This document shows positions 13,791 to 53,263 of a stretch of DNA of 64,000 nucleotides, piece by piece. This DNA is from Blasia pusilla (lineage: Eukaryota), in assembly GCA_050084515.1 (NCBI GenBank), contig CM114271.1:38192001-38256000 (forward strand). Direction: 5' to 3'. Position 1 is the stretch's first letter, and each line of letters starts with the position of its first letter. The position numbers and the translations under genes were made by a program. The notes beneath the pieces are model-generated. The model saw only the letters and a program-made list of their open reading frames with translations. It had not been told where the DNA came from and did not search any database.

Positions 13791-16700
13791 ATCGTGTCAC
13801 AACCAAGGTTGCGCACGGATAAAGTTAGTGTTAGAAAACTTATGTCCGTCCCTAGGATGGACATGTTCATGTGGGACCGTCTCACCTTCAACATAGATCC
13901 AGGCTTCGGCAACCTGCACCCAATCTAGTGATCCGTTGTCCATTCTTGCCACCCGTTCTGCAACCCTTACCAAGTCCGCGAAGGCCCGTATTGAGCCAAC
14001 CCATGGCTTGCACCAAGCCTACCTAGCCCGCACCCGCCCGCTCAAGGCGGGCTTAAGGCTTGCACAAGCCCCTCGGTTGGCCTGTGTGGTCAATGGCGTT
14101 GTTACGGCGAGCTTGGTGGATTATCTTGGATTTTACATGAGAAAGACGAGAGAGGGGTAAGGGAATTTTTTTGTGTAGGTGGGCATCCAAGTTGGCTCTC
14201 TTAAGATCCCTCAACGTCTTTTTGTGTACGTGGTTTATTTATTTGTGCAAGTGTTGCATTTTCTTTGCACAATGCAGAGGCCATCCTTGTCGGGATTGGG
14301 TACATGGATCCATGAGAAATAGGAGAACATAACCACCAATGGCACTTTTGGCTGTAAGGCCACACGCCGTGATAGGTGGGTAGCACAATTTAGAACTATG
14401 TTGTGGTAGTGGGTCAACCATGTAGTGCCAATACGGTTGTGATCACCAACCTTGTTTGATACTAAGTAAAGAGAGTGAGTTTTTGGCCAACCAAGAATTT
14501 ACTAACCAAATCCTATGATGATTTCCCAATTATTAATTAGGATATGTCTTTTTGACATAAGAGTTTCTATGACTTGTGGTTTCATGGCCATGCGACGCAT
14601 TTGGTCGTGATTTTGTACAAGATACGGCCACCCACAATGAGTTTTTGACTAAGGACGAACTCACTCGTATTGTGCCAACATGGATGATCCACTCCAATGT
14701 TCCACAAAAAAGTTCTAGAGGTTATGATATACATGTTGATGTTGATTGGAAGTCTGCATCCACTAACGGAAGATTTGACTTGTTGTTTGCGGAGATTTTT
14801 GTGCCACGAAGGGATAAATAATCTTTGACCATGTAGAGGAGTGATGGCATGCGCGTTCAGGTTATCCATTTAAGCTTTATTCTTCCACTTCTCTCTTGAA
14901 TGAGGATGTTGGGTATTGGATAGAACTTGCAATAGAGCCTATGGAGATGATGGATTGGATAAGTGTGGGGGGAGTTGTGATAGTGTGGTATAGTGAGGAT
15001 CTCGATTGTATACCCTTTTTAAGAGGAGAGTTTTGTGAGATTAGGGAGATTTCTCAAGTAGGGGTCTTTTGTATGACCTAAAGTCACCAGTAGCTTATGT
15101 GAACCAATATGGAATACGAACCTGAACATGAGGCTTGGGGTGAGCTCAAGTATTTGAGTGCATGAGACATGACTTCCGTTGTATGGTTATTAGCTTAAGT
15201 GAGATATTGAGGAGTATGAAAGGCTCAAGGCAATTGTTTGAATGTATGAGGAAAGGTTGTCATATCAATGTTCTTCCAAGGTTCAAAATAAGTGGGTAGT
15301 TCAAGGAGTAGTGGAGGAGTTACGTGGGCTGGAATGAGTTCTCGGAGGGTTTTGAGTGGAAACCCTCCAAGGCTTACATTTGGGGTTGTGTCTTCATCAA
15401 TGGACAACATGCACATTAATGAGACCATGGAAAAGAAGAGTATTGTATGGGGACACAAGGATAATATGGCATGTGATTATTTTTGAGTGTGTTTGGCGCC
15501 ATCGATGTAGATGAATTCATCCAAGATTTCAACACATGATGTGATTTTCAAGGGATATGAGTCCTGATGTGGTTCAACTCTTCCATGTTTTTGAAGGGTT
15601 TTATAATAATTATCATGATTTCCAATGTTTACATGCACTAGGGATTGACATGTGGAGGGTATTTTGGGCTCCAATGTATGTATCCACTCGTGGTCATGAG
15701 GATTATGAAGGGTTAGTGATGAAGGCTATACCAAGACCATCAGACCATGGAATAGTTGGAGATGATGTCAATGTTCGTAGCAAAGTGGACGAGACTACCC
15801 ACAAAAGAGGACCACCTAGTCTTATCCCAATGCTTGATAGCCTGTCTTAGAGTTGGAGAGGGTCTATTAGGGCGTGCAAACCAAAAAATTGAAGAGCCTA
15901 AAATATTTTCAATAGAGATTGGGTGAGTCTTGGAGAGGCATTTGTGCCCATGTAAAATTGATTATTGCTTCTCATGGACTAAGATAGAAAAATGCATACC
16001 TTCCATTATTGGTATGGGATTTTGGATTAAGGGCTATGATAGAGAGTTTGGGATGTGATGTTGCTACATAACAAAAAGTCCACCTTAAAGATGATCTTTG
16101 AGTCAACCAAGCATATTGAGCTCAACATGAGTGAGGAGCAAGTTATGACCTTATGATTTCCACAAGAGCCAACATCTCCATGAGTGTTAGTAGCTCCATA
16201 AATTCTGTATTGTGCACCAAAATATTGCAAGAAACTTGACATGCCTAGAGGAAAGAGCGGATATGTTGAGTCCATGAGGCAATGACCCGCATATACATGC
16301 ATTGGCTAGTAAGAACCGAGGCATCATCAAATAATCGCCATACACATACAGGTTGTAGAGGCTTTGAGCCATTTCAAAATTGGGCCTCAATGGCTATACC
16401 AATGGTTTGATGATATGTGGGGCTTTTGTATTCCCACTCATCGGGTGTTGGCTTATGCACACATAGCATAGGGTGTCATTGAAAAGAAACCCTTATTCAA
16501 ATTTTTTTCTTATATCTGAAAATTACCTTTTCAGTTGCAGCTTCCAACTAATGTAAATCTGTATAAAGATGGAGGACAATATTTTTTTTCAGAGTTGCGA
16601 CCCAAAAGAGGTCCTTCCCACTAACAAAAAACAACCCTAACTCAAGTTCCAACTTTGAGCAGTTTGAGTAGTGCTGCTTTTGAACTTTGCTGGACCCATT

Positions 16701-28499: not shown

Positions 28500-31400
28500 T
28501 TGCGCAGAGGTTGAGATATGGGCCAAAACCGAATGTAAGAGGAGTCGGGTTGAGGGCCAAAAAGAGGGGCCCGGATGGTCTTTCCCAAAGGTGGGGGGAC
28601 CCCGGAGTTTCCCAGAAGTACTAGTAAGGGGGAAGGTCTCCAAGAGTGTTTGGGACTCGAACCCCACTTTGGGCACCGCGGGGCGACCCAAGGGCACGGA
28701 ACGGATCGTGAGTTTGGTGTTGGGCTTCAAAACCCAAACCAAGTTCAATAGAGGGATTTCAGAGATCCCTATTGGATTCCAACTTGCGACTCATATTTTT
28801 GAGTCTCGGTTAGGGGCTCATGCGAGGTTCGTTGGACAGTTGGGACCGCTAGGCGCTCAAACGCCGTTTCAAGTGCCTGGACTAACCAGAAAGTCTATCC
28901 CAAGTCTTGGAAGGCTTGCTCGTATAGGGAACCTAGGAATAAGGGAAGGTTTAGCTTCATGAGATACCCATTTGAGAACTCGGTGGGTTGGAAGGCCGCT
29001 TGACCCAAAGCCAGACTAACGTGAGTGCGTTTAGGTGCAAGTTGGCAATGAGAGCGTGTCTTACTGAACGTATGCTTCCGCAACACTAAGATTGACATTT
29101 AAGGAGAGTAGGCGCACGACATGTGGTATCAGAGCTAATCCTTGGTGAGTGAGAACTTGGGGTTGTGGGAGTAACTGGATGCTTGGGGAACACTTGAGGT
29201 AGCGGCGAGGCCCAGACTCTTGAGGAGGGACGCAAGAAACGAGGAGGAGATCTAAGTGTGGCGGCTTGAAGATGGCAACTGAGGGAGATGTACCACGGAA
29301 ACGTCGAGCCAAGCAACGCGAACCATGGGACGAACCGATGCCAGATCGGGAGCCAGTGGAGGAAATGCTGACTCCCAAGATGCCGAATATTAGACATGAG
29401 GGTGTCCCAAACGTAGACCCTCATGCAGAGCCAATGGCCCCAAACTCAAGTGAATCGGCCTTCTACGCCCGGATGTTGGATTATATGAAGATGATGATGG
29501 AACAAGTCCTCATGCAAAACAAGCAGATTGCATAGCTTGAGTCGGATAGAGCTTCGAGTTCTGGCAAAAAGCTCTGTAAGACAAACCTGCCCACGCCATT
29601 CACCAAAGTGGGGCGAGCTCGCAAGGTGAAAGATTTCCTTACGGAGATGGAATATTACTTCGAGGCGTAGAGGGCAGCAGAACAAGATAAGGTGGCAGTG
29701 GCGCTCACCTCTCTAAAGGATCATGCGCTATAGTGGTGGACAGCGCAACGGGAAGAATATCTGGCCGGCGGTTCACCTCTGAGTTGGGAGGAGTTCAAGA
29801 AGTTGATTGGTGACGGATTCACCCTAAAGTACCAAGAGATTCCCGATAGAGTAGAGCTCGTGCGACTACGGCAGACATGGCCCTTAAGCGCTTATGTGAG
29901 GGAGTTCATCACAAAGTTGAACTCCATTCCTAAGATGGATGAGGCATCGCAGATAGCGATCTTCATCGGTGGACTCAAACCAAGTGCATAGAAGGCCCTA
30001 TACAGAATGCCGGAGTTGCCGAACACCTGCGTGGAGCTTTTGAGGCTGGCAGAGCGGATTGGGGACGATGAGGTCCAAACACTGAAGCCCTTGGAGACAA
30101 AAACTTTTTCCAAAAGTTTGAAAAACAAAGGGGCACTCAAGAGGGGCTAGAGTGGGGTTGAGCGGGACCAAAGAGAGTCTCTCAACCGAGTAGCAAAGCA
30201 ACAGGAACGCCTTGCTAAGCCGAAGGGAGCACAACATCTGAAGGAAACGGCAAGGTGGTATGCTACAACTGTGGCGAACCTGAGCACATGGCAAAAGGAT
30301 GCTCCAAATCAAAGGTTAGAAATGGGAGTATGATTGCGTTAGCTGCTAAGCACTTGTCGGCAGGAGGTTTGGAGACCTCCCTTCAAGAGGACGCCCAACT
30401 TGATGTACCTAAGATCCAAAATTGCTGATCGCGATGTGATGATGCTCGTGGATACAGGTGCTTCGCACTCCTTCCTAAGCTCGAGAATCATGAAGGATTT
30501 GAGTGTGTCAACCTCTAAGGCAGACGAGCCCATTCGAGTAGGCTTTGCTGGAGGCAAGTCTCAACGAACTTCCAAGTTGGTACTCGGTTTGACGATAGGA
30601 TGCAGAGTATTCGAGTTGAAGGAGAATTTCACGGTGTGCCAGATGGATGGCATCGACGGAGTCTTGGGGAACACATTCTTGGATGCGTATGAGGTGGAGC
30701 TAAGGCGAAGGCCATTGAGGTTGAGCGTCTTAGTGAAAGGCAAACGGTTGCAAGTGAGGTTGGTTCGCGAGATGCCCGTGAGGAAAGAGTTGGTGAACGC
30801 CATTACAAGGAGGAGTTTGACCGAGTTGGAGGATGGATTCCTTTGCTTAATGAGACAAGTGGAGGACACCCCTAGCGAGAAACGCACGGATCAGGCCGCG
30901 GCTTCAAGGGGAATCCTAGGACTGCTACAAAGAGTTGTCAAGGAGTTTGGTGATGTCTTGACGAATGAGCTTCCGAACGAGTTGCCAGCGCATAGGGCAG
31001 TCGATCACAAGATAGAGGTCAATTCCCAGATCTCAACCACCTTCTAAGGCCCCATATAGATTGAATCAGGAAGAGTTGGTTGAGCTGAAAAAGCAGTTAA
31101 GTGAGCTTTTAGAGAAAGGCTACATTAGAACCAGCAAGTCATAGTATGGAGGGTCTTCTTTGTGAAGAAGAAGGATGGGAAGATGAGACTCTGTGTGGAA
31201 TACCGTGCGCTGAATAAAGTGACGATGAGAAACAATTACCCTCTTCCGAGGATCAATGACTTCTTTGATAGACTGTCAGGGGAAAAGTACTTTAGTAGGA
31301 TTGACTTGAAATCAGGATATTACCAGATTCGGATTGCTGAAGCAGATGTGGAAAAGACTTCATGTAGAACGAGATATGGCTCGTTTGAGTTTGTGGTGAT

Positions 31401-34400: not shown

Positions 34401-35493
34401 CGATTCGATGTCAAGGGGTTGGCTTTCCACGATGACTTGACATTAAAAAGTTTGCATTGATGAGGGCATCAACCTCTAAAGAGGGGTGAGTGTCACGACC
34501 CTCATAACCAAACAAAAGCTAAGGGAAACATCCGAACTCTAGCGAGCTCACGCTAGGATGGTTTGCGTTTTGGGAGTTAAGGAAACACAAGGGCAAGACG
34601 TGAGCAAGGCGAGCATTTCAAGTGTTTCGTGTGTTGTGGTCGTGACCAAGAAACCGGAACCAAATGCGGTACTCAGACTTGAGAGAAGTCAAGTCTTGGA
34701 CGAGACGTGACCAAGGGGTGAAAACCGGACTTGAGATGTGGGCAGCGTTTGGGAGTTTCCGACTATACTTTTGACCATAAATTTGAGTCCCGAGAAGAGT
34801 TTGGGACAAATAAGCTAGTGTTGGAAAGCTTATGTCAAGCCAATTCCAACGCACCAAAGGCCTTTGCAAAGGCTTGCGTAGAGGTTGATATGGGCCAAAA
34901 CCAACTGTAAGAGGAGTCGGGTTGAGGGCCAAAAAGAGGGGCCCGGGTGGTCTTTCCAAAAGGTGGGGGGACCCCGGAGTTTCCCAGAAGTACTAGTAAG
35001 GGGGAAGGTCTCCAAGAGTGCTTGGGACTCTAACTCCACTTTGGGCACCGCAGGGCGACCCAAGGGCACAGAACGGATCGTGAGTTTGGTGTTGGGCTTC
35101 AAAACCCAAACCAAGTTCAATAGAGGGATTTCGGAGATCCCTACTGGATTCCAACTTGCGACTCATGTTTTTGAGTCTCAGTTAGGGGCTCATGTGAGGT
35201 TCGTTAGACAGTTGGGACCGCTAGGTGCTCAAACGCCGTTTCAAGTGCCTGGACTAACCAGAAAGTCTGTCCCAAGTCTTGGAAGGCTTGCGCGTATAGG
35301 GAACCTAGGAATGAGGGAAGGTTGAGCTTGATGAGATGCTGAGTTGAGGACTCGGTGGGTTGGAAGGCCGCTTGACCCAAAGCCAGACTAACATGAGTGC
35401 GTTTGGGTGCAGGTTGGTGATGAGAGCATGTTCTACTGAACGTACGCTTCCGCAACACTAAGATTGACGTTCAAGGAGAGTAGGTGGATGACA
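28500..35493 (+). mobile_element. Ty3/Gypsy chromovirus LTR retrotransposon, degenerate, 5' LTR truncated
   Basis: The 5' LTR remnant 28500-29121 matches the right part of the 3' LTR 34491-35493 (TGTCAC...GACA). PBS TGGTATCAGAGC (initiator tRNA-Met) at 29124 and PPT AAAGAGGGGTGAG at 34478-34490. Gag, PR (LVDTGASHSF), RT (YIDDILI), RH, IN and chromodomain (FEVETIL...YLVKWKGY...TW). Confidence 0.95.
29272..33811 (+). pseudogene. gag-pol of the chromovirus with in-frame stops and frameshifts
   Basis: ORF pieces at 29266, 29803, 30400, 31162, 31452, 32403 and 32888 in canonical Ty3 order. Confidence 0.92.
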
Positions 35494-38400
35494 CCTACTC
35501 TCTCAGATTACCCGTGGCCTCAGCATGTCATCCTCGACCTCTTGAGGTTGTCCTCCAGTAACTTCTAGATCTGGCCAATCTATCCTAAAAGTCATGACGG
35601 TTGTCGTGCGCATACACATCGCTACACAACATACATCGGTGTCACCGAACATATACACAAACACGCACGATCCAATGCTAAATCATGGAATATACACAAC
35701 AAGACGAGAGGTACCAAAATATCTCCAATCGCCCCCCTAGATGGTGGTTAGGTCCCTCTAACTCTAGATAGTCATCTATCCCTACCTACCATGACATACA
35801 TCTCTTGGACGCTTAGAGCAAAAAGATCAGGCGCTCATGTGGCCCCATCCTTAGTCGCCTTCTTATCATCCATATCAGAGACACAAATCGGAATGTACAA
35901 CTACCTACTCTATGTACATGTGGGATATATCCATCATCCCTGAAGAACCCTAGTGAGAGGTGGCGTCAGACATGGCATATGCCACCCTCTCGAACACCCA
36001 TCATAAACTAGCATGATGGATGCACCATGGGCGGAACCACACCATATACATCATAAGCATGCAAAAACTACTACTAAGCTCGAATAAACTATACCGTCAA
36101 TGTTAGGAAGATGACATGGTGCACAATTACGCACATGGTCCTTCCAAACCATACCATCGTGTCCCTCTAGTAAGAGAACACCAGATGGCAAAATCTCACG
36201 GACTCTCAAGATGGTGCGCCTTGCAGTCACAGTCAAGATCGTGCCGTCTATTGCAAGTAGACATAGTCTCTTTGATGAAACCTCCAGATATTAGGTCGAT
36301 ATCCACCTCCTCCAATAGTCGCATACCTCAACGTATCCCAATGCTGCACAATCACCAAGTTCTCAAGCGCCATGGGCATCACTCTCCGAAACAACTCAAC
36401 ACTCTAAGAACATACTCGCATCCATACATCAGGGTAATCAAAGTTCAACACCTCACCAACATCTTGATGAATGGCCGTAGGTAAATCCGGCTCTCGGCCA
36501 GAAAATAGCAAGTACGGTGAGAAAGCCGCTAAGGATGCCTGCCTGCTGAATCTGTATCCCATTGCCAACCACGGCAACTGAGGTCCCAATCTTCTAGGTG
36601 ACCTTTCTGCAAGCCATACTTGCGCAATCCTCTCTTCACCGTCTACACAAACCTCTTCTCTAGTCCATCCGCCTCAAGATGATCACGTGAAGTGGTGCGG
36701 TGGTCGATCAGCGTCTGATCACACAAGGCTTGAAACTCCCCGGGAAACTCCGTACCTTCGTCTATCAACACCTCAACTGGTGCACCATAATGACTCAACA
36801 CTCAATCTAGGAAGGCATATGCTACTCCCTCACTCGATTTTTCATTCAATGCAACCAACTCTATCCACTTCGAGAAGTGCTCGACCATCACCAACACATA
36901 ACGACTATGGCGCTCCGTCAAAGGTAAAGGTCTTGCAAAATCTAATTTCCATCTCTAACCTAAACCCATGATCAAAAGTGGATGCAAGTGTGGAGTTGGA
37001 GCATTGAACGATGCCCAGACCTGATCACAAACCATGCACCTGGCAACAAACTATTGAACGTCAGTCTCCATGCCTTGCCACCAATATTGTATTTAGAGCA
37101 AGCTATACGTCTGCTTCACTCCAAAATGATCCAACTCCTCGTGGGCATGATACACCAAACGTGCTCTTTGTGAAGGATGAGGCACTACACGCACTCTACC
37201 ATCCTCCCAAACTCGTAACACATATATGCCCTCCCACCGGAACCATCTAGCTCGTTGTAGGATCCGATCCTGCTCTATAGCACCCACTATGCTCGTGACG
37301 CTGCCAGTACGTAGGTACTCCAAGACTACTCCATCGTCATGAATATCTCGGCCACCTATCGCCTCCACACGACCTCTAGATCTAAGGACTCTCCATCAAA
37401 CCTCGCCATCGAAGCCTTAGCAATCTGGCTCTCCATAGCCAACAAGCCCAAATAGGCTGATGGGTGCTATCCTGGTACCAACTCCTCATCACTCTCTCCA
37501 TGCCATCGAGCTCCAGTCGCATCTCGTTGACTCGAGCATGGGTTACGGCTCAAACCATCTGCATCCTGGTGGAGTGTCCTAGGTCCATGCACCACCTGAA
37601 AATCAAACTCTTGCGATAACAAAGCCCACCCTATAAGCTTTCATGTAAGCTTGTCGGACTCTGTCAACCGCTTAAGTGGCTGATGATTAGTAATAATGGT
37701 AAAGGGATTGCCGAATAAATAACACCTGAAATGTGCGACAGCCCACACTACAACCAAGCACTCACCCTCATACGAGCTATACTTTGCCTCTACAGCATTG
37801 TTCGAGCACTAGCATAAGTCACCACGAACTCTCTACCCTCATCATCATGCTGGGTGAGCATGGCTCCAAGCCCCAACATGCTCCAATTAGTATGCAATTG
37901 GAAAGGATGCCGCCTGATTGATCTCCTCAATATAGGCGCGGATGTCAATCTATCCTTGAGCAGCTGAAATGCTCTCCCCTGCTCATTCCCCCAATGACAC
38001 TTACTTCGCTTTCTCTGATTCGGCTGTGCTTTCCAGGCGCGGCGAGCGCTCACCCCCCTAATCCCCCTTGGTCAACAAGGTCAGCGGCTTCGCAATCAAA
38101 CTGAAACCCTTGACGTACCATCGATAGAAGTTCGCCAATCCTATGAATGCATAAACTAGATTCACATCTATAGGGTGTGGAATGCATGAAATAGCCTCTA
38201 CCTTCATCTGCTGCACACTAAGGCCCCCTGGGTATATCGTATGATCCAAGTATTCAATCTATTCGTAGAAGAACTTGCACTTGCTTGGATGTAGCTTCAA
38301 CCCATGTAACTGCAATCGTCGAAACACCTCCTCCAAATGTCGCTCATGCTCCTCAACCGTGGCGCTAAATACTATGATATCATCAATATAACACATAGCA

Positions 38401-39150
38401 AAATCCAGACCTGCCAAGATCCCATCCACGATCCTCTGAAACTCAGCCGAGGCATTCTTTAACCCAAATGGTAAAAATCGTCATTGATACAAGCAATCCT
38501 TCCCGTGAGGATCGACGCCCCAAAATATCGTCTTCTACTTCTCCTCCAATCTGATAGGCAGCTGATGGTATGCTGCTAAAAAATCTAAAGAACTAAATAT
38601 CTTTGCATGCCCAATAGTATCAAAGATCTCCTCAAGGATGGGCATGGCATACCTATCGGTCTTCATCTTTCGATTGATAGGTTAGTAATTTCCACACATC
38701 CGCCTATCCGTCCAATTGCCATTCACATTATTCTTGGCTCCAACCAAGTCTTGGCTCCTACTCTGAATCAGATCCCTCTCCATATCATTGTACATGTAGG
38801 ATCTTTGGAAGATCGGCGTGTCACTTGACAACTCAATGCGGATCCTTGGACCCTTCAATATACCCAAATCATGCATGCTAAATGCGAAACACCTCCTATA
38901 ACTCCTAAGAAATTGACGTATCCTGCGCCGCTCTCCTGTTATCAACTTAGGGCCCATATCTCACTCCCAAGTCTCCATCGTGACTACGGTAGGACTCTCC
39001 GGTGCGGGTGTCGGTGGTTGCTATTGTGCAACCCTGTCTGGGACAATAGAACTCGGCTACTCCCCTGCAACCAATTGCAAACTCTGATCTCCATGTGCAA
39101 TGCCCGAAACCACGCTCGATGTTGTGGCTCCCTGATGTGCTAAGGTTCTC
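35494..39150 (-). mobile_element. Truncated sister element of the split-repeat Ty3 family: RT-RH-IN-PHD, PPT, B', junction, partial A'
   Basis: Translations match 49391-52500 (GPKLITGERRRIRQFLRSY, HPFQLHTNWS, QLPWLAMGYRFSRQASL, WKDHVRNCAPCHLP). PHD remnant ~35890-36050, PPT 35729-35738, B' 35602-35728, A' 35494-35599. Confidence 0.9.
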
Positions 39151-43519: not shown

Positions 43520-44160
43520 TAGAATAGTGCATATGGTCCCCAATTTACATCTATCTTGCAAAGTCTCATCCCAAATTAAGTTTAAAATGACCTTTTGGAC
43601 CCGACATAGATAACCTTGAATGAAAAAAATATCTTCAATTTTTTATCTTGTCCAACGTTTCCATCTTGAGCTAAAATTTAGCCCACATGGTCTCCAAGGT
43701 GCATCTAGCAGTCTTGCAAAGTTTCAATAAAAATGGAGTTGGGACCACAACCTCAAAAAGTGGCAAGTCCATTTTGGACCCGAACCAGTAGACCTTCTAT
43801 CAAAATAAGGTTTTTTTAATTTTCTTGTCAAAATTTATCATCTTGAGCTGAGATTTAGCCAACATGGTCCCTGAGGTCCATGTTCTACTCTTGCTAAGTT
43901 TAAGGAAAAATGGAGTTGTGAGCAAAAGCTCAAAAATTACTAAGTCCTTTGTGGACCCGAACCATTAAACCTTGAATGAAAAGAAGGTCTTTTGATTTTT
44001 CACCTTGTCTAACTTTCCCATCTTGAGCTGAAAGTTGGTCTACGTGGTTTCAACCAAAATGGAGTTGTGAGCAAAACCTCAAAAATATGTAAGTACGTTT
44101 TGGCCCCGAACCACTAAACCTTCAATGGAGTTGTGATCATGAGCTCAAAAATCACACTTA
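43520..44160. repeat. Degenerate tandem repeat, unit about 178 bp, about 3.5 copies
   Basis: TGGACCCGA core at ~43596, ~43775, ~43953 and a shortened unit at ~44101. CATCTTGAGCT and AAAATGGAGTTG recur with the same period. Confidence 0.85.
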
Positions 44161-44559: not shown

Positions 44560-45166
44560 GAGTATCCTGCATAGGTTAACTAGACTCGGTGGAATAATTC
44601 TGAACTCCTACTGGTGCAACAATCTGAGGATCATGGGTCGTGTTAGGAGAATTGCCGGGAAAATTGGCTTTGCTCGAAGTCCTCCGTTGTTGCTCTTCCT
44701 TGTGCTCTCCAGTCCAATGTTCCATTTCAACATCATCTTCATCTCTTCCAAGCCCCTCAGAATCAAAATGTTCAGTGTTGCCAATATGAGTATCCTCTCT
44801 CCCTTTGATGCCATGAATTCCAAATATCACATCCACCTCCTCTAGGTCCTCATCTTGCAAGTCAAGGTTATCTTCATGATTACCATCATGGTTTCTTGGA
44901 TGCAACCTAGATTCAGTGCCATCTTCTACTACTCTTCTAGCTTGTTATTGTCCATCCCTTTCTGAATAGTATTGCTCGTACAAGAGCACTTGTCTTGATT
45001 TCCGAGAAACACCCTTGTCTCCAAACCTTGAGTTTGTGTAGATGTAAACCAAATCCTTGGCACGCTCATTGGTCAATTTATTCCTATGCTTGTTGTGGAT
45101 GAGACCATAACTACTCCAATTTCTCGCCGCTGAAGAAGATGAAGCCACTTGTGCTTATATGGACTT
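44560..45166 (-). pseudogene. hAT transposase C-terminal part (dimerization domain and acidic tail)
   Basis: AQVASSSSAARNWSSYGLIHNKHRNKLTNERAKDLVYIYTN, the plant hAT dimerization motif. Continues the frame of 53264-53920. Confidence 0.9.
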
Positions 45167-45534
45167 TGTCATGACCATATGGATTATGTCGTAGAGTATA
45201 GTGTGCTAGTAGAGGCCATACCTTATGCAGGGCCGTAGTATCCAAGTAGAGATGCGGTTTCATACATAGGGTTGGGGGTTACTCAGTTGAGGGTGACTTT
45301 TCCAGTAGGGCCCGCTCTTAGGTTGGAGGATATAGTGTGGAGTGTACTCAAAGAACAGTTAGTTCTTTGAGTTGAGCCTGCTGCGTTGGGAGTTAGCCTT
45401 GGTAGTGAGTAGAGCTCTTGGCTGTGGTGGTTCCCGCAAGCTTCGACCTGGATTCTCCCATCGTGGAGTGGGTTTGGCTTGATTTTATGTGATTCTATAC
45501 GTGTTTTATGACAATAGGTCTTTCACGGATTTCA
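45167..45534 (+). repeat. Repeat A1 (368 bp)
   Basis: Same length as A2, with about 17 substitutions counted by eye, mostly transitions. Confidence 0.97.
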
Positions 45535-45546
45535 CTCAAAGAACTA
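45534..45546 (+). promoter_or_regulatory. Putative self-priming primer binding site
   Basis: ACTCAAAGAACTA at the A1 boundary is the exact reverse complement of TAGTTCTTTGAGT (45360-45372) inside A. No TGG-initiated tRNA-type PBS at the boundary. Confidence 0.75.
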
Positions 45547-45645
45547 GAGTAGATCGATGGTAGCTTCGATCGTGAATCAGTAGGATCTGGTTAGGGCTGA
45601 TTGTGTACTCAACCGTGGAGGTTAGGGCTGATTGTGTACTGAGCC

Positions 45646-47790
45646 GTGGCTTGGAAGGGGTTGTTTCAGCATTTGGAGGGACCACCCATGGACGATTACC
45701 ATGAGTTTAGGAAGGACCATGTTGCTGAGATCGAGGCGTGGAGACAATATTGGTCTCCAGGCTATGTGTCTATCACCCATGGTGGTATTGGTAGTAGTAC
45801 TCCTACTATGCCAGCCAGCCCGACGTTGAGTGGTACGAGTACGAGCTGGAGTGGGGGTACCAGTGGAGGTACCCAAGAAGGTACCATTGGGGGTACTAGT
45901 GGAGGTACTAATGCCCCACCATTGTTCACCCCGGTTGCAGAGTTCTTCAAGAGGTTGAAGAAGAGCTATCAGGGAGTGAAGACAGAGAAGTTGAGGAGTC
46001 TTCAGGAATTTGAGCGAAAGACTGGTGAGAATCTTTGTGAGGCATACACTCGTATGCGATGCTTGATTTCAGTTACCCAGGGTGTGATTGAGGCTATGGG
46101 AGTCCGGTTTTGGTATGGGATCTTGGATAGAGAGTTGCGCTGTAGGGTACATGATGCTACTCTTATGAGTGATGATTCATCCACATTGACTCATTTGTTT
46201 GCTCTATCTGAGAAGATTGAGCTTAACATGGTGGAGGAGAGAGTGGTGACATCCGCATTCAGTAGGGATACAATTACTACTTCTCGTGTTCAGCAGTCCA
46301 CCTCCCAGTCTCGTAGTAGTGGTGGTGGTAGTAGTAGTGGGAGTCGTGGGGGTTACACACGACCTCAGTCAGGTCCTAGAGGGACACTTGTGTAGAGACC
46401 ATTGCCTTCATTTGCTGCCCCGCAGTAAGGACAATCATGTTAGACATGTGGAGGTGATCATGTTAGGAGATTTTGTCCCCAAGAGGATGGGAGATGGACT
46501 TTGGAGGATGGGCCTCAGTCGGCCCCAACTCAGTGTGATCATTGCGGAAGACCAGGTCATCCTCGAGAGCATTGCTTTGATCTTCATCCAGAGTTGAGAT
46601 CATGACGCGGCTGTGGTGGAGTAGCTCCAAGAGGCCGAGGTGGTAGAGGTGGTAGAGGTGGACCAGTGGTTGGAGAGCCTACGGTGGCTACCCCTACCCC
46701 TACAACAGAGTCGCCTATGGTGCCGAGATTGAGCTTGATTGGAGCAGGAGTTGGCTACTATGGCTGGTATCCAACATAGAGCAGGTTCGGGAGCAGGGGC
46801 TTCCACCTCTTATGGAGGGGATGATCTCTCTTATATGGCGAGTGCAGCACAGGTTGAGGCATCAGATGCAGTTATGAGAGGAGCCACTCGAGCATCAGAG
46901 CCATGTGGTGCTACTATGGAGTTGGACCCATAGAGGGGTGAGGCTGGGAGGCAGGCTAGGCTTCCCCAATCATTCTTGTTGTCTGAGGTGCTTAGGAATC
47001 CATCCATGGTTCCTACGCAGCCTATTGAGCCTATAGTGGGGACTGAGGCATCTACATCACGTGTAGTAGACACGGATGCAGCATCCAGTGCAGTATTGCG
47101 GATGGCAACTTCAGTGTTGGGATTCCCATTGTTTTCGGCCACGGAGCTGATGGCTTTAGGAGTTGACTTAGCTCATGTATTTTAGCTAGCAGCCACGTTG
47201 TGTGAACGTGGGGGTGTTACTGCTACACGTGCTGAGGTGGATGAGGGTGTTGCGGTGGAGCAACCCTCTCTGTCACATGTAGCATTGAGTACCAGTGCTA
47301 CTTGGCAAGTAGCAGCGGCGAAGATGGATGCATTACCAGCCCGGCCAGCCATTGATCGTGAGAGGCTTACACCTGGTGTATGTATGTTGGACAACCAGAG
47401 TGGGATATTCCGATTGGTGAGTCCTACATGATAGCTGTATAGACCAGATAGAGTCTTGTTGGACTCTGGTGCCCAACCTTTGATGTTGGGAAAGGCGGCA
47501 TGTATTGATTTGGGTATTCGGAGGTCAGAGCTTGAGCCTTGCCCATTCTAGATTCAAACATCACTTGGAGGAGCCAATGATACGTCTCAATTCATGATAC
47601 GGGAGAAGTTGTCTGTACAGTTGAGACCAGATCATGCGATTGATAGCTCCCGGTTGGGAGTACCTGCAGTGGTCACATCAGCGGAGTCGTATGATGTACT
47701 AGTTGGAGGAGCAGTATTGTACCCGATGGGTTTTCAGATGGATTACTAGACTGAGATAACGTCTTATAGACCTAGTTGGCAGTCCGGGGA
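45646..47790 (+). pseudogene. Gag (with zinc knuckles) and aspartic protease of the split-repeat element
   Basis: Gag-like ORF 45646-46395, knuckle CDHCGRPGHPREHC (~46534-46575), protease VLLDSGAQPLML (~47453-47488). In-frame stops. Confidence 0.85.
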
Positions 47791-48179
47791 TGGATGTATG
47801 AGCCAGGTTCCTGTGAGATTTATTTATGGGGCTCGACCAGGAGGGTCTTCCCCAACGGTGTTAGCATCTGTGGCTGGTTTTAGTGGAGTAGTCACTTGGC
47901 CAGGAGACTTTTTGGAGGGTAATCTTTTTGCTATGGATTCTCCTGTGCATGAGGAGGTAGAGGAGATCCCTAGTTTTGCAGCAGTGGCATCCTCATCGTT
48001 GGATGTGCCACTTTGGAGTTCAGGCGGTGTACTACGGCAAGAGGCTGATCGCCTATTGCAGGAGGCTTGGTGTGAGGCTGTTATACCTCACGAGGAAGAG
48101 GAGGCCCCACGGCGTACTCCTACTTCTGGTCTAGTTGGGTTATCCCCTTTGGATACTACACCCATTGTATGGCAGTATC

Positions 48180-49140
48180 TGCCGGAGGGCATTTGTGTGT
48201 TAGATCTCTTTGGTGGGATTAGCACTGGTTTGGCTGCAGTGTGGCAGGCCGGTATTCCTGTGCGGAGATACGTGTATGTGGAGCGAGATGAGACGGCCCA
48301 GAGAGTCTCATCCCGACATATCGGTCAGTTGATGCGGAGATATCCTGAGTTGTTTCCGCCATCAGCTATTCGTGGGTACCAACGTGCTTTGCCGTCACAC
48401 ATTGCATTGTTGGGGGCGCAGGACCTTAAGAGGGTTGGTCCTGTGGATTTGGTGATTGCTAGATGGCCATGTCAGGGTCATACACGTGTAGGTCGTGGTG
48501 AGGGATTACACGACCCTAGATCTCGATTGTTTTGGGAGATGTTACGGATGTTACGACATCTTCAGGTTCATCAGGCACGTGCTCCAGCTTACATTCTGGA
48601 GAATGTTCCATTATTGGATGACACTCGGATCCGGATGATGGCGAGTGTTCATGAGGTGCGGTCTTGGATTGGACCTGCGGTGTTGTTGGATGCACCGCGA
48701 GTCGGCTCGCGTGCACATCGTCCACGCTTGTGGTGGACAAACTTGTTGCCTAGGGAGGTTCTACGTCAAGCATATGATGCAGTGTAGCGGGATCCTTGCC
48801 TTACAGTGGATAGTATCTTGGATATTGGGCGAATTTCTCAACTGGTGAGGGTTATTGATTGGTCATCCATGGTAGTGGTGAACCGTGTGGGCCAACCTAG
48901 GATGGCACTATCCACATTTGTGAGTTTTCCCTCGTCACATGCCTACAGGGAAGGTGGTTCTGGGCTTGTATGGGATTCTCATGTGCGACAGTTGGTGGAG
49001 CCTAACGCTGACGAGAGAGAGTGTGGGATGGGATTTGCTACTAGTGTGACAGCGGTTGCTTCCATTTCTGAGGCTTCACGACGTCATGTGTTGGGTCAGG
49101 CCATGGACCTAAATTGTTTGACTTGGATTTTGAGTCTTGG
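48180..49140 (+). pseudogene. C5 cytosine DNA methyltransferase domain (DNMT3/DRM-like) within pol
   Basis: Motif I VLDLFGGISTG, II VYVERDE, IV DLVIARWPCQ, VI YILENV, VIII AHRPRLWWTN, IX ERECGMGF, X RRHVLGQAMD. One in-frame stop at 48785-48787. Confidence 0.92.
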
Positions 49141-49390
49141 TATGGCCGAGCAGCGTTGACTTCGGACTTTGTCTGTGGGTCTTCCATCCCTTGTGATGAG
49201 CTCGATGGCTACCGGGACGGTAGAGGCATCGGATGGGGGTAAGGAGAGTAGTATTTTGCATCCTTGGAGTAAATGGGATGTAATGGCTGGGCATGTGGAG
49301 TTGGTTGCTCATGCTGGTGGAGGAGTTATTTGCTCAGATGATGGTATAGCTAAGGGTGTACCATCTTGTGAGGGGGTTGCGTAGCAACCA

Positions 49391-52300
49391 ATGGCGTCGT
49401 CCTCTCCCTCTAGTGTGCCAGTGGAAGAGACTTGGGAGCCATTACTTGGGCCCAAGCTTACGGGAGATGAGAAACGACGCTTGACACAATTCCTACGTGC
49501 TTATAGGAGTTTTTTTGCCTTTAGCATGAAGGAGTTGGGTGCTTTTGTTGGGCCTGGTATACGGATTGATTTGGCTGGTGATATGCCAATCTTTCGTCGT
49601 CCCTACCGATATAGTGATATGGAGAGGGACCTGATTCAGAGTAGGACGTTGGACCTTTTGGAGGCTGGATTAGTGGAGTTGTCGCATGGAGAGTATGCAT
49701 CAGCCACAGTCATGCCTGCTAAAAAGGATGTGCATGGCAACTACACGGATAGACGGATGTGTGGAGATTACCGTCCTATCAATCGACAGACCAAGGCTGA
49801 TAGGTATGCCATGCCTACACCTGAGGAGATCTTTGATGTGGTGGGACATGCAAAGATTTTTTGTACTTTGGATCTTCGGGTAGGATACCATCAGTTGTCG
49901 ATTCGAGAGAGTGACAAGGCCAAGACAACATTTTGGGGTGTCAACTCTCATGGAAAGGATTGTTTGTACGAGTGGAAATTCTTACCCTTTGGGTTGAAGA
50001 ATGCACCTGCCGAGTTTCAGAGAGTGATGGACAGGATCCTAGCAGGGTTGGATTTTGTTCGGTGTAACATTGATGATATCTTGGTGTTCAGTAACACGGT
50101 GGAGGAGCATCAAATACATTTGCAGATTATGTTTGAGCGGTTGAAAGCTCATGGTCTATGTTTGCATCAAGGAAAGTGTAAGTTCTTCCATGAAGATGTT
50201 GAGTATTTGGGTCATGTGATCTATCTAGGTGGTTTGGGAGTTCAGCAAGCAAAGATGGAGGCTATTGCACTTATTCCTTGTCCGATAGATGTGAGTAGAG
50301 TTCAGGCATTCATGGGATTGGTAAACTACTATCGGAGGTATGTGAAGGGATTTAGTGCTATGGCAAAGCCTTTGAACCAATTTTTGAAATCAGATGAGGA
50401 GTGACACTGGGGAGATGATCACGAGAGAGCTTTTGTGGAGCTCAAGGCCCAGTTGGTTGCTGTGCCTATCTTGAGGAGACCTATCAGATGGCGCCCATTT
50501 CAGTTACACACTGATTGGAGTAGGTTGGGACTTCGAGCGGTGTTGACACAACATTATGATGAGCACATGGAGTTTGTGGTGGCCTATGCAAGTCGTTCGA
50601 ATAATGTAGCAGAGTTGCGCTACAGTTCATATGAGGGAGAGTGCTTGGCAGTAGTGTGGGCTATGGCACACTTTAGGTGTTACTTGTTTGGCACACAGTT
50701 TACCCTTGTTACTGATCACCAGCCGCTCAAGTGGTTGATGGAGTCTGACAAGCTTACAGGGAAGCTTGCACGGTGGGCTCTTATCTTACAGGAGTATGAC
50801 TTCCAGGTGGTACATAGACTTGGAGTTGCCAACCTTGATGCTGATGGGTTGAGTAGGAACCCATATACTAGCCAAGAGGATGCAACTGGGGCTAGATGGC
50901 ATGGCGAGGTGATGAGGAGATGGTGCCAGGTTTGCATGCATCTGCCTTTTTATGTTGGTTAGGGGTGGACTCTAGTATGGAGGACCACATGACATCTTAC
51001 TCTAGTCAGAGGGTAGATGGTCAGCCTTTAGATCCTAAGGTTGGAGATGGTGGTATGGATTAGCATGATATTCATGATGATGCGTTGGTGTTGGAGTTCC
51101 TACGGACCAGTAGGGTGCCAGGCATAGTGAGTGCCAAGGAACGAGACCGTGTTCTTCAACGTGCTAAGAGGTATGAATTGAGGAAACACATATTCTCTGT
51201 GTGTGGGAGGATGGTAGAGTACAAGTAGTTCCGCATTTGGCTCAGAGAGAGTGCATTGTGCGACATGCCCATGAGGAGTTGGGACATTTTGGGGTAAAGC
51301 GTACGTATAGCTTACTCCTTGGTCAGTATTGGTGGCGTGGCATGCATACTAAGGTGTAGCAGTTGGTGTCACGTTGTATGGTTTGTGACCGGGTGAGGGC
51401 ATCATTCAATGCCCCTACACCACAGTTACATCCCTTGCCTATTATGGGGTTGGGTTAGCGTTGGAGTGTGGACTTTGCGGCACCGTTACCGTTGATTGTA
51501 CGACATATCGATATGTGTTGGTGATGGTGGAGCACTTCTCCAAGGGGATTGAGTTGGTGGCATTACCTGACAAGGCAAGTGAGGGAATGGCGTATGCATT
51601 TCTTGATAGAGTGCTTAGTCATTTTGGTGCACCAACTGAAGTACTGACCGACCAGGGTACAAAGTTTCAAGGTGAGTTTTAGGTCTTGTGTAACAAGGCG
51701 TTGATTGATCATCGGACCACGTCTCGAGATCATTCAGAGGCGGATGGTTTGGCTGAGCATGTGGTTCAGACGGTGAAGAGGGCATTGCGCAAGTATGGCC
51801 TACAGAAGGTGCATCTTGGAGACTGGGATATTCAGTTGCCATGGTTAGCCATGGGGTATAGGTTCAGTCGCCAAGCATCCTTGGCTTCCTTCTCACCTTA
51901 TTTTTTGTTATCGGCCGAGATCCGGACTTGCGGCAGTAGTCGTTGGAAGTCTAGTGAGGTGGTGAAACTTGATGACCCAGAGATGTGGATGAGAGTGTGT
52001 TCTCAGCAGGCATAGCTCTTTCAGAGAGTTATGCCAACAGCCTTTGAGAATCTTGCCATTTCCCAACACAGGGATATATTGCGGTATGCAACCATTCGGG
52101 GTGGAGGTTATCGACCATCGATTTGTAGGTTCCATGTGGGGGACTATGTCTATTTGCAGCAGATTATACCAACAACGTTGGATGTGACGGCAGGCCGCAC
52201 TATTTTACGAGTGCGCGAGGTGTTAGCTTCTGGAGTTCTCATGTTGGAGGGTCGTGATGGAGTTTTTTGGAAGGACCATGTGCGTAATTGTGCACCATGT

Positions 52301-52500
52301 CATCTTCCAAATGTGGATGGTACTATTGACCCAAGCTTAGCCATGATACGTGCTAGCTTGAGGTGCATGTTGTGTGGGTTTGCTGGTAACGCAACCCGTA
52401 TGTTGGTGTGTGATCGGTGTTCTAGGGGTTGACAAATGATGTGTTTGACTCCACGTATGGATGTTGTTCCTACTGGAAGGTAGGTTTGTCCTCGATGTAC
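49391..52500 (+). pseudogene. RT, RNase H, DDE integrase and C-terminal PHD finger
   Basis: RMCGDYRPIN, LPFGLKNAP, NIDDILVFS; FQLHTDWS, SYEGECLAVVW, LVTDHQPL; HEELGH..CxxC; VLTDQGTKF, DGLAEHVVQTVK; CMLCG...MLVCDRCSRG*QMMCLTP....VP.G.*VCPRC. Confidence 0.95.
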
Positions 52501-52667
52501 TTAGGAGAGGTAGATGACTTGATCTTTGCATGATATGGATTACAGATGTGCGACTAACGATGGGGCAACCTAGCACCCGACCTTCTGATTCGTGCATCCA
52601 AGAAGGTGTATAGCATGTAGTAGATGTATAGGACTACTTGGGAGTTAGAGGGACCTAACCGCCAGTT

Positions 52668-52677
52668 AGGGGGGCGA
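52668..52677 (+). promoter_or_regulatory. Polypurine tract
   Basis: AGGGGGGCGA followed by GT and the TG start of B1. Conserved in the relatives at 35729-35738 and ~2686. Confidence 0.8.
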
Positions 52678-52679
52678 GT

Positions 52680-53259
52680 TGTGGTACACTTGTGTTTATG
52701 GATGCTCTCGTCTATGTTATGTATGTATGTGAGTATGGTATATCAGCGATGTATGTTGTATGACGATGTGGATTCGCAAGACAGTTGTCATGACCATACG
52801 GATTATGTCGTTGAGTATAGTGTGCTGGTAGAGGCCATATCTTATGTAGGGCCGTAGTGTCCAGGTAGAGATGTGGTTTCATACATAGGGTTGGGGGTTA
52901 CTCAGTTGAGGGTGACTTTTCCAGTAGGGCCCGCTCTTAGGTTGGAGTATATAGTGTGGAGTGCACTCAAAGAACAGTTAGTTCTTTGAGTTGAGCCTGT
53001 TGCGTTGGGAGTTAGCCTTGGTAGTGAGTAGAGCTCTTGGCTGTGGTGGTTCCCGCAAGCTTCGACCTGGATTCTACCATCCTGGAGTGGGTTTGGCTCG
53101 ATTTTATGTGATTCTATACGTGTTGTATGATAGTAGGTCTTTCACGGATTTCAGTTGTGGTACACTTGTGTTTGTGGATGCTCTCGTCTATGTTATGTAT
53201 GTATATGAGTATGGTATGTCAGCGATGTATGTTGTATGACGATGTGGATTCGCACGACA
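52680..53259 (+). repeat. B1-GT-A2-GT-B2 terminal block
   Basis: B1 and B2 are 104 bp each with 4 differences. A2 is 368 bp. Both internal junctions read CA-GT-TG. Confidence 0.97.
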
Positions 53260-53263
53260 ACTT

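Follow-up and report, generated by a model that had tools for sequence, protein, structure and literature searches.

A candidate Tf1-like self-priming signal in a methyltransferase-bearing gypsy retrotransposon family with permuted repeats from Blasia pusilla

Self-priming frees a retrotransposon from the tRNAs of its host. Tf1 of Schizosaccharomyces pombe reportedly primes reverse transcription with the first 11 nt of its own mRNA and, to our knowledge, self-priming so far marks the Tf1/sushi-Tcn1 and TAR lineages. The mechanism itself is not new: it is established for Tf1 and inferred for Tj1 of S. japonicus (PMC4600332), and Neumann et al. (2019, PMC6317226) predict that 12% of the LTR elements of plants, namely, those of Tcn1 and TAR, are self-primed. 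The main text of the latter study makes no mention of Marchantia, liverworts, PHD or methyltransferase; its supplementary tables may list such elements.

With respect to gene content and repeat layout, the closest described system is KnitGypsy-Dnmt3 of Klebsormidium nitens, the repeats of which are ordered A-coding-B-A-B, an arrangement described as the 'same as that of a DIRS retrotransposon' (de Mendoza et al. 2018, PMC5890265). The main text of that paper contains nothing on a primer-binding site (PBS) or on priming. In our literature searches, Klebsormidium and Symbiodinium were the only hosts with published methyltransferase-bearing gypsy elements; no such description was found for a bryophyte. 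Split direct repeats are also characteristic of PAT, Ngaro and Toc in the DIRS order, which use a tyrosine recombinase (PMC4157794).

Here we analysed a stretch of 64,000 nucleotides from Blasia pusilla, denoted the window below, in which positions 45167-53259 (+) are a decayed Ty3/gypsy-type LTR retrotransposon (Table 1). The element encodes, in this order, gag, protease, C5-DNA-methyltransferase, RT, RNase H, DDE integrase and a PHD finger, and its repeats are laid out as A-internal-B-A-B. Repeat A1 is 368 bp long, A1 and A2 end at 45534 and 53153, respectively, and the identity is 96% both between A1 and A2 and between B1 and B2. The motif LLDSGAQ at 47456-47476 is presumably that of the aspartic protease. 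The best solved relative of the RT of the window in the PDB is the Ty3 RT (E 1.8e-48).

Like KnitGypsy-Dnmt3, the element combines a gypsy-type pol (RT, gypsy RNase H and rve integrase) with a C5 DNA methyltransferase domain and the A-coding-B-A-B layout (PMC5890265). Unlike KnitGypsy-Dnmt3, it resides in a bryophyte, and no K. nitens protein was found among the 27 long relatives listed. The order A1 ... B1-A2-B2 is shared with PAT, Ngaro and Toc (PMC4157794), but where those elements use a tyrosine recombinase, the present one encodes a DDE integrase core, terminates in TG...CA and is flanked by 4-bp target duplications. Assignment to the DIRS order, which is defined by the tyrosine recombinase, was rejected given the rve core and the 4-bp target duplications. 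We place the element in a little-described bryophyte branch of the methyltransferase-bearing gypsy elements.

Table 1. Coordinates of the element and of its features in the window
Feature	Position	Strand	Remarks
Target-site duplication ACTT, left copy	45163..45166	+	identical four bases at 53260-53263
Repeat A1, TGTCATG...GGATTTCA	45167..45534	+	holds promoter-like box, hairpin and R-U5-like leader
TATA-like box	45329..45335	+	GATATAG here; TATATAG in A2; TATAAAG or TATA in relatives
Perfect 11-bp hairpin, 5-nt loop	45346..45372	+	present in most related A copies
Proposed self-primer, start of R, TAGTTCTTTGAGT	45360..45372	+	perfect complement of 45534-45546
Proposed primer-binding site ACTCAAAGAACTA	45534..45546	+	same place in 37/37 related 5' copies
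Shortened leader	45547..45687	+	~1200-1660 nt from A1 to gag ATG in relatives
gag open reading frame	45688..46395	+	80 loci with relatives 42-70% identical
Presumed aspartic protease motif LLDSGAQ	47456..47476	+	read from sequence
C5 cytosine DNA methyltransferase domain within pol	47750..48787	+	Pfam PF00145, E 1.9e-7
RT and RNase H	49385..50962	+	PF00078 E 2.5e-28, PF17917 E 3.7e-35; in-frame stop at 50402
Integrase core remnant and C-terminal PHD-like Cys motif (52364-52429)	51389..52432	+	stops break both
Polypurine tract AGGGGGGCGAG	52668..52678	+	adjoins B1; same tract before B1 in 15 loci
Repeat B1, TTGTGG...GACA	52679..52783	+	96% identical to B2
2-nt spacer GT	52784..52785	+	within palindrome CAAGACA-GT-TGTCATG, B1/A2 border
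Repeat A2	52786..53153	+	aligned to A1
Repeat B2	53155..53259	+	one extra G (53154) links A2 end to B2
Target-site duplication ACTT, right copy	53260..53263	+	same as 45163-45166

The orthologous ORF of a relative (L033:15671-16792) encodes the rve domain (E 1.4e-12) followed by a PHD finger (PF00628, E 2.7e-8), and no chromodomain match was detected in this ORF. By the chromodomain criterion, the family is therefore not a chromovirus. The integrase-linked PHD finger, present instead of a chromodomain, may be a different chromatin-reading targeting module. In a distant relative of 1918 aa (P0146), methyltransferase motifs, read by eye from the sequence, are located after RNase H and before the integrase, whereas those of the window precede RT, so the domain would have either moved or been acquired twice.

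The window copy of the element is dead. RNA reads diverge from the window just upstream of 45647 and the leaders of the relatives measure 1200-1660 nt, indicating that this copy has lost most of its leader. All 12 in-frame stops in the pol frame (47549-52432) are TAG or TGA, and transitions predominate among the differences between RNA reads and the window, a pattern expected from the deamination of methylated cytosines.

Metagenome contigs were searched with the gag protein and 80 loci with products 42-70% identical were kept; in these, 37 5' copies and 8 3' copies of A were identified by BLAST and an alignment. Among the protein relatives, those with a name belong to Marchantia polymorpha, Calypogeia fissa, Sphagnum fallax and Closterium, and the first three of these also provide the long relatives of the methyltransferase ORF, over which the M. 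polymorpha sequences show 55-70% identity. Taken by themselves, these relatives indicate that the host is most likely a bryophyte and probably a liverwort.

Within A1, TAGTTCTTTGAGT (45360-45372) is the perfect 13-nt complement of ACTCAAAGAACTA (45534-45546), and the first base of the latter site is the last base of the repeat. When repeat A was subjected to 2000 dinucleotide-preserving shuffles and compared with the 20 nt following the repeat, a 13-nt complement was obtained in 0/2000 cases, the longest being 12 nt, once. Exact matches to ACTCAAAGAAC occur at 45346-45356 (+), 45362-45372 (-), 45534-45544 (+), 52965-52975 (+) and 52981-52991 (-), that is, all five exact copies in the 64-kb window lie inside the element. 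With two additional one-mismatch matches, the total is 7, against 1.65 expected, and none of 100 shuffles reached 7. The complementarity is real and far beyond chance.

The segment 45346-45372 is a hairpin, ACTCAAAGAAC-AGTTA-GTTCTTTGAGT, with a perfect 11-bp stem and a 5-nt loop, and its left arm is identical in sequence to the core of the PBS. In A2, a TATATAG box (52948-52954) precedes AGTTCTTTGAG (52980) by 32 nt; the counterpart of this box in A1 reads GATATAG (45329-45335). Thus, the 13-nt complement, the hairpin and the A2 box that a preliminary description of this DNA had reported are all present at the positions given there, the box of A1 being a variant of that of A2.

The proposed PBS lacks an initial TGG, so that a match to the CCA end of a tRNA is not possible. 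In a search with ARAGORN, which covered the window and 40 of the 80 loci, the loci yielded no tRNA and the window a single call, a tRNA-Gln at 13993-14081 (-) that is 89 nt long, GC-rich and doubtful as a real tRNA. In the region 45000-45800, Rfam gave zero matches at E up to 1. A TGG-starting stretch at 45561 (TGGTAGCTTCGATCG) was considered as a tRNA-type PBS and rejected, being 27 nt away from the repeat and missing in the relatives. No other conserved candidate priming site was found beside A1 in the related 5' copies.

A ACTCAAAGAAC-like site, with 0-4 mismatches, is conserved in all 37 related 5' copies, directly after the end of A (TTTTCA), and is followed by a few variable bases and then a T run. 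About 170 nt upstream of this site, the relatives contain CTCAAAGAAC-ATAG-TTCTTTGAGT, the same combination of hairpin and primer segment, 27-33 nt after a TATAAAG or TATA box. The perfect complement extends to 17 nt (AACATAGTTCTTTGAGT) in L001, L045 and L059 (L050 represents the same insertion as L045). It reaches 17 nt also in L070, in which AACGTAG is paired with CTACGTT and a G:C pair occupies the position where the others have A:U. The 17-nt pairing is thus seen in four distinct insertions. The complement is 11 nt long in L020 and L074, and shorter in point-mutated copies.

Six of the 37 5' copies (L008, L015, L021, L032, L064 and L076) have lost the hairpin together with the primer segment and retain the site; in L021, the hairpin region is deleted from the 3' copy as well. 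These deletions suggest either an unstable palindrome or assembly collapse. Many of the remaining 5' copies show mismatches in the pairing, as decayed copies would. In the most distant loci (L065-L067, L071, L072 and L077-L079), only 11-12-nt complements were found, at a rate estimated to be that of chance, and the repeat borders could not be defined.

For the analysis of covariation, 26 non-redundant leaders were aligned, namely, the window and 25 of the 31 usable loci; the near-duplicates L030, L035, L043, L050, L054 and L055 and the six deletion copies were left out. Across the 17-pair helix in these 26 copies, 86.9% of the 442 cells form standard pairs; shifting the 3' partner by 1-3 columns lowers this value to 39.0-55.1%. 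The observed percentage of paired cells was matched by 3/500 shuffles, and the covariation score by 15/500. Five of the 17 pairs have changed on both sides, and 213 of the 500 shuffles do as well.

The pair formed by columns 4 and 209 is AU in 12 copies, GC in 4, GU in 3, UG in 1 and unpaired in 6, and the change in this pair is compensatory. Because column 4 is located in the hairpin loop, the change co-varies with the flank of the PBS and not with the hairpin. The GC and GU variants are confined to one subfamily and may reflect a single AU -> GU -> GC event. The core of the helix is nearly invariant, and the covariation is accordingly thin.

When RNAalifold was applied to the 26 copies with no structure supplied, it predicted the helix, with columns 7-17 paired to 185-206 in a stem that closes the leader. 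In the minimum-energy fold of 45360-45552 (-62.2 kcal/mol, z -2.14), the 5' end pairs with the site, and 6 of 200 shuffles fold as well. The duplex between the 5' end and the PBS would, in these predictions, close a structured U5 leader.

Three RNA-seq runs with the same species label were mapped at 90% likeness. First-mate reads of the - strand cover the element at a mean depth of ~10-200 per bin, compared to 0-18 for the other orientation; provided that the libraries are stranded in the usual way, this implies that sense-strand RNA of the family is produced. The reads cover the whole of A, with a depth of 34-47 at 45228-45245 and 22-49 at 45381-45424. A similar depth on either side of 45361 is to be expected because A2 lies inside the transcript and the reads cannot be assigned to A1 or A2. 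In two of the three runs, fragment starts pile up at 45328, not at 45361 (17 of depth 45 and 11 of depth 45). The similarity between subfamilies begins near 45328 and the depth does not rise there; the pile-up is probably a clipping boundary of the reads.

By the logic of reverse transcription, the repeat border is the place where minus-strand synthesis starts. This border coincides, to the base, with the conserved complement of the presumed RNA start, and the site lacks a TGG, which makes Tf1-like self-priming the best reading of the pairing and, judging from the comparison of copies and the modelled folds, probably the correct one. Under this reading, the RNA would start in or just after the hairpin loop of repeat A, ~27-33 nt past the TATA box, and the first 12-17 nt of the RNA would pair back onto the site adjoining the end of A1 (45534-45546). 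The RNase H of the element would then cut behind the paired stretch, and the freed 3' end would prime minus-strand DNA, as in Tf1 of fission yeast.

Self-priming had been proposed from the window alone. It is well supported by the comparison with the relatives: the site is found at the end of the repeat in all 5' copies examined, the TATA box lies 27-33 nt before the pairing partner, one pair shows a compensatory change, and the consensus fold includes the helix. What the sequences show is that the two segments are complementary, that the match is conserved and sits precisely at the repeat border, that one pair has undergone a compensatory change, and that the helix recurs in the predicted folds; the start site, the cleavage and the priming itself are inferences. 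Several observations were counted against self-priming, namely, the GATATAG sequence of the A1 box, the similar RNA depth across 45361, the pile-up at 45328, the thin covariation, and the loss or mismatch of the primer segment in other copies. Were the RNA to start at 45328, the primer segment would lie in its interior, held within the hairpin. Furthermore, because the left arm of the hairpin has the sequence of the PBS, the match could stem in part from duplication.

In a rival reading that we consider unlikely, the pairing is real but transcription begins ahead of the hairpin (near 45328, for instance), an internal primer segment alternates between the hairpin and pairing with the PBS, and priming follows an internal cut. 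Such a scheme would be a variant of self-priming unlike that of Tf1, in which the primer is the extreme 5' end. An upstream start would fit the accumulation of fragment starts at 45328 in two of the three runs as well as the conservation of the hairpin, the left arm of which competes for the same bases. Position 45328, however, precedes the TATA box, the depth shows no rise past it (~36-47 before and 22-49 after), and the onset of subfamily similarity nearby makes clipped reads the likely cause of the accumulation.

Priming at 45534-45546 by a host RNA, either an internal tRNA fragment or another small RNA, with the match in the LTR owed to the hairpin arm duplicating the site, has a precedent in the half-tRNA primers of plant copia lineages (PMC6317226). 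We regard this as quite improbable for the present family: the site lacks TGG, the complement of up to 17 nt extends past the hairpin arm, and the position in the loop of the LTR hairpin co-varies with the flank of the PBS, which a third-party primer does not predict. It is just as improbable that the sole role of the complementarity is in RNA folding, be it for closing the leader, for packaging or for controlling translation, or that it is a relic of duplication, with priming elsewhere: although the helix closes the entire leader in the predicted folds and a TGG-starting stretch is available 27 nt downstream, the first paired base is the repeat border, which the priming site defines, and the stretch at 45561 neither lies beside the repeat nor recurs in the relatives, where no other conserved site is found next to A1.

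Assuming self-priming, the signal differs from that of Tf1 in two respects: the complement is 13-17 nt long, compared to the 11 nt reported for Tf1, and the 11-bp hairpin contributes a second copy of the PBS, located immediately ahead of the presumed start. The element further differs from Tf1 and Tj1 in having a PHD finger in place of the chromodomain, a DNA methyltransferase within pol, and repeats arranged as A...B-A-B rather than as two equal LTRs. As in Tf1, Tf2 and Tj1, the PBS adjoins the 5' LTR and is complementary to the segment at the start of the transcript (a presumed start in the present case), a tRNA-type TGG is lacking, and the duplex of the 5' end and the PBS closes a structured leader, in our case a predicted one (PMC4600332). 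Like the Tcn1 chromoviruses of mosses and club-mosses and the TAR copia elements, this is a plant LTR element in which the proposed PBS matches its own LTR and probably not a tRNA, and like Tcn1, it has a bryophyte host (PMC6317226). The signature of self-priming in a methyltransferase- and PHD-bearing gypsy family of bryophytes suggests a wider range of self-priming.

The more unusual feature of the element is the mismatch between the borders of reverse transcription and those of integration. The preliminary description had taken self-priming to account for the dispensability of B at the 5' end. This explanation is not supported: the A-internal-B-A-B layout is family-wide and is known for KnitGypsy-Dnmt3. 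The same layout was identified in L008, L021, L033, L040 and L045. Where A1 begins and B2 ends, 4-bp target duplications were detected: ACTT in the window, TCTC in L008, CATA in L033, AAGG in L045 and, with one mismatch, AACA/AATA in L021. Repeat A opens with TGTCATG and repeat B closes with the inverted form of this sequence, CATGACA, so that the B1/A2 border is palindromic, with a 2-nt spacer. The length of this spacer is always 2 nt, and its sequence varies among copies (GT, AT, GC or AC).

Because the polypurine tract adjoins the start of B and the PBS adjoins the end of A, canonical synthesis should give a B-A repeat, with B at both ends. The PBS and the polypurine tract thus define a B-A repeat whereas the target duplications define A...B termini, that is, the integrated copies are permuted relative to the canonical product of reverse transcription, a finding that is new here. 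It is the complement that, by marking the end of U5, exposes the permuted layout. At the A2/B2 border, the sequence is CA+G in four copies and CA+A in one, and one copy contains a 21-nt insert; in the rearranged copy L020 (the same insertion as L049), the border keeps a copy of the PBS. In its structure, this border resembles a junction of the two cDNA ends.

A second form, A-internal-B with a terminal B, is represented by L015, L016, L038, L027, L061, L046, L073 and L029. Copies of this form in which both ends are visible also have 4-bp target duplications, namely, L015 (TACA), L016 (TGTG), L038 (ACTA) and, with a single mismatch, L027. This form could result from recombination between B1 and B2, or could originate directly. 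Among 24 distinct 5' ends, none has B upstream of the 5' A, that is, B-A ahead of the PBS. A symmetric 2-LTR-circle model is disfavoured by this count because it predicts equal numbers of A-B-A-internal-B copies.

We tentatively propose, as a possibility that we hold to be doubtful, that the borders of reverse transcription and integration differ because the DDE integrase uses a joined-end intermediate, cutting the internal palindrome CATGACA-NN-TGTCATG. For retroviruses, a joined-end route of integration has long since been set aside. If such a route exists here, it would also have to be one-sided, given that B-A is absent upstream of the PBS in all 24 distinct 5' ends. With the permuted layout exposed, the question of how 'gypsy elements with DIRS-like repeats' replicate, for which no explanation was given in 2018, becomes a concrete, testable problem.

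Several additional observations pertain to the expressed copies and to the surroundings of the element. All three runs contain RNA reads (16, 29 and 45) in which 51029 is followed by 8 other bases and then by 52032, suggesting an expressed subfamily in which ~1 kb of the integrase region has been replaced. Other reads link 45479 to 52815 (or 45196), that is, position 313 of A to position 30, via CAATT (4, 7 and 5 reads), and may derive from a tandem or rearranged A in some transcribed copy. At 36584-38915 (-), the window contains part of a related element in inverted orientation; its RT and integrase regions show 72-75% identity, and it has no recognisable flanking repeats. The direct repeats at 28515-28814 and 34887-35186, which are 96% identical and 6372 bp apart, probably belong, as LTRs, to another retrotransposon. 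Immediately upstream of the element described here, positions 43593-44127 are occupied by a tandem array with a unit of roughly 177 bp.
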